DNA of 3,480 nt from NCBI RefSeq assembly GCF_003334255.1, contig NZ_QOWU01000120.1; one strand, 5' to 3'. Positions 1,596-2,357 of this stretch are shown one piece after another. Origin of the DNA: Escherichia coli. GTDB taxonomy: Bacteria > Pseudomonadota > Gammaproteobacteria > Enterobacterales > Enterobacteriaceae. Below the pieces are notes generated by a model, which did no database searches, had not been told where the DNA came from, and saw nothing but the letters and a program-made list of their open reading frames with translations. The stretch's first letter is position 1, and the number at the start of each line of letters is the position of its first letter. Position numbers and translations under genes: made by a program.

Positions 1596-1783
1596 GAGAC
1601 GCAGAGGGGAAGTTGCGTCCATTTTACCGGGAACGGAGCAAAAAACCGCCATTCATACCCTGTATCAATCAGTGTCATCCTGTTTAATCGTCGTTTCCGC
1701 TCATATGGTGCACAAGGGGTGTTGAAGAAACATCCGTTTTGTGGTGCTTTTTTAGTCTTTTGGGGATTTAAATTCCTATCGAT
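422..1783 (+). mobile_element. IS91-family (HUH rolling-circle) insertion sequence, 5' end truncated by the IS3-family element; right (ori-side) boundary approximate
   Basis: Contains an IS91-type transposase gene. The right boundary is inferred from the change to AT-rich mcbF-like coding sequence and from CAAG tetranucleotides at 1713-1716 and 1784-1787, the IS91-family target. The exact end is uncertain between about 1712 and 1787. Confidence 0.6.
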
Positions 1784-2357
1784 CAAGGGCGGAGTAAGTA
1801 ATTATGAGGGGACCCTCAAGCGTAATTTCTCTGGTGGAGAATTAGTAAGTCTACCTCAAGTCATAAATCTTTCAGGTACACTAAGGAATGAGGAGGTTCT
1901 TGATTTGATTTGTTGCTTCAATAAGTTAACTAAAAAACAGGCATGGGCAGAGCTTAATCATAAATGGAATGATAATTTTTTTATTCGCTATGATAAAATA
2001 AGTCGTAAAAGGACTTACACGGTAAGTTATGGGGAGAAGCGTTGGCTTATCATATCTTTGATGCTAACGCTTTGCAAAAATGCCCGTTTATTTTTACTGG
2101 ATGAACCAACTGTAGGCATTGATATTCAGTACAGAATGATGTTATGGGAACTGATAAATAAGATCACCGCAGACGGGAAAACGGTATTTTTCTCAACTCA
2201 TATTTTTGATGAACTAACAAGAGATAAAATCCCCTTCTATATGCTTTCAAAAAATGGTATAAATCGTTATTCTGATATGAGTGATTTTATTCAATCTAAT
2301 AATGAAACAACTCCAGAAAAGGCATTTGTTAAAGAAGTTATGGGAACAGGGGACTGA
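1719..2357 (+). pseudogene. mcbF: 5'-truncated ABC transporter ATP-binding protein, McbF-like (microcin B17 export/immunity ATPase); Walker A absent
   Basis: The ORF has a Q-loop-like VSLPQ, a degenerate signature SYGEKRW, Walker B LFLLDEP and an H-loop STHIF, but no GxxGxGK[ST] and no in-frame ATG before about codon 114. It is AT-rich and ends 4 bp before the pentapeptide-repeat gene, matching the mcbF-mcbG arrangement. Homology probably starts near 1785-1790; the first roughly 20 codons may be junction sequence. Confidence 0.6.
2347..2352 (+). promoter_or_regulatory. Shine-Dalgarno-like AGGGGA for the mcbG-like gene
   Basis: AGGGGA lies 8 nt upstream of ATG 2361. The upstream ORF stop (TGA 2355-2357) is 3 nt before the ATG, an arrangement compatible with translational coupling. 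Confidence 0.5.

Follow-up and report, generated by a model that had tools for sequence, protein, structure and literature searches.

The IS91 ori end abuts CAAG within mcbF

Does the truncated mcbF gene at this locus mark the place where an IS91-family element broke into a complete microcin B17 (mcb) operon, or was the neighbouring immunity gene mcbG brought in by the element as cargo? A preliminary description of the window (the whole 3,480-nt stretch of Escherichia coli DNA that was analysed) had proposed the former, with insertion at a CAAG tetranucleotide at 1784-1787 and consequent truncation of the ABC ATPase. The entire window is a plasmid mosaic of insertion sequences (IS), and its features are as follows:

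1-421, minus strand: part of an IS3-family element with its transposase, inserted in IS91 directly after the tnpA ATG; it ends ...CCACTACA at 421
422-1783, plus strand: right-hand 1,362 nt of IS91 (IS positions 457-1818)
422-1595, plus strand: IS91 tnpA pseudogene; the IS3-family insertion splits off the start codon and a frameshift leaves open reading frames (ORFs) at 497-1474 and 1335-1595
1596-1783, plus strand: IS91 3' non-coding region with the ori end, the terminus being identical in all copies compared
1719-2357, plus strand: chimeric ORF annotated in RefSeq as 'AAA family ATPase', with a GTG start in IS91, 22 IS91-derived codons and 190 mcbF codons
1784-1787, plus strand: CAAG, the target; in mcbF these are nt 159-162, made up of the third base of codon 53 and the Lys54 codon
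1784-2357, plus strand: 3' 574 nt of mcbF, a non-functional remnant encoding residues 54-243 and the stop; its matches to ABC ATPase profiles are confined to their C-terminal part
2361-2924, plus strand: intact mcbG, encoding the 187-aa pentapeptide-repeat microcin B17 immunity protein, with 186 of 187 residues as in McbG of plasmid pSCU-111-2
2925-2993, plus strand: mcb-module sequence 3' of mcbG; homology to intact operons stops at 2993 (pSCU-111-2) or 2978 (common type)
2998-3183, plus strand: fragment from the 3' end of an IS66-family tnpC (matching NF033517 at profile positions 357-385 of 387), forming the right border of the mcb remnant
3404-3480, no strand assigned: IS629/IS1203-type terminal repeat of the IS3 family, TGAACCGCCCCGGG...

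IS91 encodes an HUH rolling-circle transposase, which joins the ori end of the element directly 5' of CAAG or GAAC and does not duplicate the target; this preference was reportedly described by Mendiola and de la Cruz. In the window the element terminates at 1783 with ...AAATTCCTATCGAT (terminal 14 nt, 1770-1783), and every IS91 copy that was fetched terminates with ...TTCCTATCGAT / ...GGATTTAAATTCCTATCGAT at the equivalent position. A 341-nt junction query beginning at position 1560 matched 682 E. coli records, in which IS91-type matches stop at window positions 1783-1789 (query ends 224-230) and mcbF-type matches start at 1782, as they also do in the comparison with intact operons. The two-nucleotide overlap, AT, reflects microhomology, as the IS ends in CGAT and the target in TTAT. 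IS91 homology, whose boundary at 1783 is seen in hundreds of copies, ends neither before 1712 nor past 1790, and McbF homology begins at the CAAG itself, where ATC-AAG-GGC (Ile-Lys-Gly, 1782-1790) lies in the mcbF frame as the preliminary description had read it. The second CAAG to which it drew attention, at 1713-1716, is present but internal to IS91; it is found in other IS91 copies and coincides with no break in homology. We consider it highly probable that 1783/1784 is a genuine joint between IS91 and CAAG in mcbF, placed to the base where it had been proposed. A promoter and terminator scan of 1550-2450 detected a small hairpin at 1717-1735 within IS91, and the predicted DNA fold of the ori end (1690-1790) was no better than those of shuffled sequences (z = -0.04).

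The target was present in uninterrupted mcbF

The closest uninterrupted allele, in the intact operon of pSCU-111-2 (L005, NZ_CP051729.1), reads AACATTAT/CAAGGGCGG (AACATTAT/CAAGGGCGGAGTAAGT) at the site, where the slash marks the breakpoint, and is identical there to the window from CAAG onward; over window positions 1782-2993 the two are 99.26% identical, with 9 differences in 1,212 nt. The common pMccB17-type allele (L002, NZ_CP074882.1), to which the remnant is 96.7% identical, reads ATCAGGGGC, with CAGG in place of the tetranucleotide and Arg54 (AGG). The suggestion that CAAG is not native to mcbF, which this common allele might seem to support, was dropped since the closest allele carries CAAG and lysine is the family consensus, Lys54 (AAG) being shared by the window lineage and most McbF homologues in other genera. 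For the same reasons the target CAAG was already there before the gene was interrupted. As the Arg54 codon abolishes CAAG, the common E. coli allele is without this IS91 target.

The part of mcbF that is kept, nt 159-732, begins after the Walker A motif (GENGAGKT, residues 40-47), which was lost along with the rest of codons 1-53. Whereas McbF of the microcin B17 ABC exporter is a protein of ~243 aa with a Walker A P-loop, normally encoded beside its membrane partner mcbE in mcbA-G, the remnant falls short of this full length and has no mcbE. The 'AAA family ATPase' ORF at 1719-2357 is an annotation artefact of the junction.

Target preference at other IS91 ori ends

We gathered IS91 ori ends from two sources, the plasmids fetched and metagenomes scanned with the terminal 20 nt of IS91, obtaining 83 ends with 46 distinct flanks. 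These begin with the following four nucleotides:

GAAC, 27 distinct flanks
CAAG, 12 distinct flanks
CGAG, 3 distinct flanks, one of which is the ter end of a tandem IS91
GGAC, 2 distinct flanks
CAAT, 1 distinct flank
TGCC, 1 distinct flank

GAAC or CAAG thus begins 39 of the 46 (85%), compared to an expectation of about 0.8%. Within the window the two tetranucleotides occur at 21 of about 3,477 plus-strand positions (0.6%), so a random breakpoint would rarely have one directly after it.

The GAAC at 3405-3408, in the IS629/IS1203-type terminal repeat, is used as an IS91 target elsewhere (L028, ...CCTATCGAT/GAACCGCCCCGGGTTTCCTG, GAACCGCCCCGGG), and IS91 followed directly by IS629/IS1203-type terminal sequence is seen in many plasmids. 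Two metagenome contigs (L045 and L060) have an IS91 ori end joined to an IS91 ter end (...CCTATCGAT/CGAGTAGGCAGCC), representing tandem copies or a circular form; the first four bases of the ter end, CGAG, are similar to the target tetranucleotide.

The other end of IS91 lies in a colicin gene

The left (ter) end of the element lies outside the window and can be seen in plasmids pSTEC17_183-b (L008, position 6545) and pECOED (L009), where it abuts not mcbF but a fragment of a colicin Ia/Ib gene. This fragment consists of the last 480 nt, encoding the pore-forming domain, and an intact immunity gene comes after it (L008 6065-6577). Homology to intact colicin loci (99.3%) ends exactly at the IS91 end, and the intact gene reads ...GCTTGTTTACC/GAACTCATC (...TTTACC/GAACTCATC) at the breakpoint. 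The colicin gene has therefore been cut directly before GAAC, and the ori-side partner of a simple insertion into it would start with that tetranucleotide. Each junction bears an independent IS91 signature (CAAG beside the mcbF flank, GAAC at the start of the lost colicin sequence). At both joints the break is flush with the uninterrupted sequence, and the two flanks derive from different genes; the target rule of IS91 is thus visible at both ends of one element, which bridges two truncated bacteriocin loci, each with its immunity gene. The start codon of the RefSeq 'colicin-like pore-forming protein' coding sequence lies inside IS91.

The mcb DNA that should accompany mcbF on the far side of a simple insertion is missing. 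A BLAST search with the whole operon found mcbA-E and the 5' 158 nt of mcbF nowhere on the complete plasmid NZ_CP060062.1, the sole match being the 1.2-kb piece. Since the ter end abuts the colicin gene and this DNA is gone, a second event is required, and both one-step insertion into mcbF and random deletion are excluded. Of the proposal that an insertion truncated mcbF, the CAAG joint and the truncation stand, but insertion alone is insufficient and a second IS91-dependent event is needed.

Decay and mosaic structure of the IS91 copy

In plasmids without the IS3-family insertion the full IS91 copy is 1,818 nt long, and its left (L008 6545) and right (L008 8362, window 1783) limits are common to three independent copies. 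Aligned over 1,833 nt with the IS91 of L004, whose 395-aa transposase is intact, it shows 96.1% identity, and the transposase fragment matches the IS91 family transposase model NF033538 with 229.7 bits against a cut-off of 125. The copy therefore shares with IS91 its transposase signature, full-length identity of 96% and an identical ori-end terminus that meets CAAG on its 5' side without intervening bases, but differs from typical IS91 in being defective and mosaic and in having flanks from two different genes.

The IS3-family element in the window generated a 4-bp target duplication, CTTC, the right copy of which lies at 422-425; the corresponding sequence without the insertion is GATGCTTCCCCG (L008), and the left copy is seen in L001 (...GATGCTTC/TGTAGTGG). 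Matches that lack this element, among them pECOED-type relatives, begin at window position 422. In tnpA an 11-bp deletion between window positions 1330 and 1331 (GATAAGGGGTT in intact copies) shifts the reading frame, and the PGAP annotation labels the gene 'frameshifted'. The surviving IS91 copy is predicted to be dead because of this deletion and, in the window, also because of the IS3-family element after the ATG; the junction is for that reason a fossil. The window copy is a mosaic of IS91 sequence types.

Positions 78-3480 of the window are 100% identical to plasmids NZ_CP060058.1 and NZ_CP060062.1, and for 422-3480 identity to pECOED (NC_011754.1) and three other plasmids is 99.8-99.9%. 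Positions 1-77 are unmatched in the first two plasmids, whose IS3-family element differs there, and NZ_CP144931.1, among other plasmids, matches the window from position 1; the source of the window seems to carry a variant or recombinant IS3-family copy.

A sister structure with a different right border

A gut-metagenome contig (L079, UEPH01005953.1) contains the identical colicin/IS91 left junction, followed by an IS91 that is identical to the window copy through IS position 1465, the 11-bp tnpA deletion included. From IS position 1493 onward (the last ~330 nt) its sequence is of another IS91 type, the final 218 nt containing 49 differences. Its ori end (reverse-strand position 5212) is joined to traI at GGAC, which is not one of the canonical tetranucleotides but has been reported for IS801. 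This IS91/GGAC-traI junction had no full-length match in plasmids. Comparison of the two copies thus shows that IS91 elements of this lineage have swapped right ends together with their flanks, and that they did so when tnpA was no longer functional. Because the two copies differ in right-end sequence type, at least one of them arose by recombination between IS91 copies, and either could be the recombinant. A further IS91 copy (L053) shows many unique differences on a contig of ~3.5x coverage and was left out of the interpretation.

Distribution and searches for parental junctions

The left and right junctions occur together in six of six PLSDB plasmids. The mcbF junction was also found on eight metagenome contigs, six of which reach the left junction and all six of these carry colicin/IS91; none of the eight shows a conflicting structure. 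As both junctions always co-occur, the distribution points to one ancestral event that later spread.

Synthetic 240-nt queries for the junctions that simple insertions would have produced were searched against 72,556 plasmids (PLSDB) and 5,426 complete E. coli genomes. For an insertion in the colicin gene the predicted junction is the IS91 ori end followed by GAACTCATC... (30-mer TTCCTATCGATGAACTCATCATATATCGTT), and for one in mcbF it is the mcbF 5' part, ...AACATTAT, followed by the IS91 ter end, CGAGTAGG (30-mer CTTTTTAACATTATCGAGTAGGCAGCCTGG). Neither was found in either collection, and the search did not separate recombination between two IS91 copies from deletion by a single one. We found no plasmid in which the colicin gene neighbours an intact mcb operon, no IS91 signature at the boundary between the DUF6404 region and yacBA in pSCU-111-2, and nothing about the junction in literature on mcbG with IS91 or on pECOED.

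Origin of the structure

The best reading, which we judge somewhat better than an even chance, is insertion of two IS91 copies followed by recombination between them. The CAAG belonged to a formerly intact mcbF in a microcin B17 operon like that of pSCU-111-2. Two copies in the same orientation may have inserted, the first at the GAAC of the colicin gene and the second at the CAAG of mcbF. Homologous recombination between them would then have joined the left flank of the colicin copy to the right flank of the mcbF copy, removing the 5' part of the colicin gene, mcbA-E and mcbF nt 1-158. For copies on two plasmids, an equivalent route would be formation of a cointegrate followed by loss. Supporting this are the exchange seen in L079, the mosaic structure of the window IS91, and the presence in E. 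coli genomes of up to 20 places that match the junction query. Counted against it are the failure to find the parental junctions or a plasmid with both loci as neighbours, the fact that a one-ended deletion yields an identical sequence, and the ambiguity over whether L079 or the window copy is the recombinant.

Such a deletion is a close rival that predicts the same sequence, although we give it clearly lower odds, at something under one in three. A single IS91 in the colicin gene at GAAC would here have initiated rolling-circle displacement from its ori end, proceeding through ter and round the plasmid to stop at the CAAG in mcbF, whereupon the circle closed and the interval between ori and CAAG was lost. 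The joint that had been attributed to insertion could then have been produced by deletion instead. There is experimental precedent in IS801, also of the IS91 family, which generates plasmid deletions with a constant ori801 border and another border at GAAC (5 clones) or CAAG (8 clones) (PMC6354349). One insertion and one event would account for both canonical tetranucleotides, the parental junction of a second copy was not found, and a DUF6404 backbone gene is found upstream of the remnant as well as of the intact pSCU-111-2 operon, making a local deletion plausible. The IS801 deletion derivatives of Pseudomonas plasmids pPsv48C and pPsv48A are alike in that a remote GAAC or CAAG has been brought to the ori end and the DNA in between lost, but they concern another element and another host, whereas in the window lineage ter is intact, the transposase is dead and the sister structure L079 differs in its IS right end. 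Against this route, the frequent IS801 deletions came from an isoform with trimmed ter. The 11-bp tnpA deletion shared with L079 implies at least one change of right border after inactivation, for which transposase would be needed in trans. Finally, derivatives with different right borders differ in IS91 right-end type, which deletion by the same element does not predict; in our comparison the constant ori end and a parentally distant GAAC or CAAG were found, whereas the same IS sequence across derivatives was not. Deletions by recombination between IS801 copies have also been seen (PMC6354349, Bardaji et al. 2019).

That the mcbF remnant and mcbG were delivered as IS91 cargo, by one-ended transposition or an ISCR-like capture, is very improbable. 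IS91-family elements do mobilise adjacent DNA (PMC3189936), and the remnant is a 1.2-kb island between IS91 and the IS66 fragment. However, one-ended transposition mobilises DNA on the ter side (upstream), with a tetranucleotide at its far end (PMC3189936), whereas mcbF'-mcbG lies on the ori side. IS1294 and ISCR elements share the ori end, ter end and ter read-through logic of IS91, but their captured genes lie beyond ter, and the ori-side immunity gene of the window is by this comparison a leftover. In the uninterrupted allele the CAAG belongs to mcbF itself, and 13 of 13 occurrences share one structure. Because the remnant is on the ori side, CAAG is native and the DUF6404 gene lies upstream of both forms, we conclude that mcbG was not delivered; the view that a complete mcb operon was disrupted holds, the remnant being 99.3% identical to the intact operon.

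A single insertion of IS91 into mcbF with nothing else changed has still less to recommend it, since although the right junction is exactly as such an insertion would leave it, the ter-side flank is a colicin Ia/Ib fragment and not the 5' part of mcbF, the plasmid checked has no trace of mcbA-E or mcbF nt 1-158 anywhere, and the predicted left junction was found neither in the plasmid collection nor in the collection of complete E. coli genomes. For the plasmids examined, the colicin flank and the missing mcb DNA refute it. Equally poor is chance juxtaposition by illegitimate recombination, with IS91 activity uninvolved and CAAG coincidental, for while the region is a dense mosaic with IS3-family, IS66 and IS629 fragments, the break falls precisely between the end of IS91 and a canonical tetranucleotide, which chance alone would produce in about 0.6-0.8% of cases, and GAAC independently begins the sequence lost from the left junction, giving a joint chance of order 5e-5.

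Retention of mcbG and implications

Window positions 1784-2993 are colinear with the end of the microcin B17 operon (mcbABCDEFG) of pMccB17-type IncF plasmids, comprising mcbF from nt 159 on, mcbG and ~70 nt beyond. Compared with that operon only the last 1.2 kb remains, the structural gene, the synthetase genes, mcbE and the Walker A motif of McbF being missing. Directly after the mcbF remnant, mcbG, which we take to be a gyrase-protecting immunity gene, is a full-length ORF, and 177 of the 187 McbG residues are identical to those of the common allele. Similarity to the Qnr family is weak (45.9 bits against a cut-off of 240), and with a score below the cut-off McbG is not a Qnr. A consensus scan detected no sigma-70-like promoter site on the plus strand of 1550-2450. 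The predicted consequence is that neither microcin nor the McbEF export pump is produced while mcbG is retained.

The structure is an ordinary mobile-element scar that reflects already known biology and leaves current understanding unchanged. It does show IS91 copies turning bacteriocin operons into immunity-only remnants. For annotation, both the 'AAA family ATPase' and the 'colicin-like pore-forming protein' have their start inside IS91, which makes them chimeric ORFs that ought to be labelled as pseudogenes; for screening, a plasmid positive for mcbG need not make microcin B17.

One might go further and regard the colicin Ia/Ib immunity gene, the dead IS91 and mcbG as an 'immunity-only' cassette that has been selected, rather than as debris, but we think this unlikely. 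If it were so, plasmids of commensal and Shiga toxin-producing E. coli (STEC) could resist the colicin and microcin B17 of competitors without the cost of production, signals derived from IS91 or internal to mcbF would drive transcription of mcbG, and mcbG might give Qnr-like low-level protection of gyrase against quinolones.

At the right border, mcb-module homology ends ~70 nt past mcbG (2993/2994), and the IS66 fragment comes next in the window. In pSCU-111-2 an IS3-family end, 92.8% identical to window positions 78-424, begins at the equivalent position (L005 7366-7368), which suggests that 2993/2994 is either a shared edge of the module or a hot spot for insertion.
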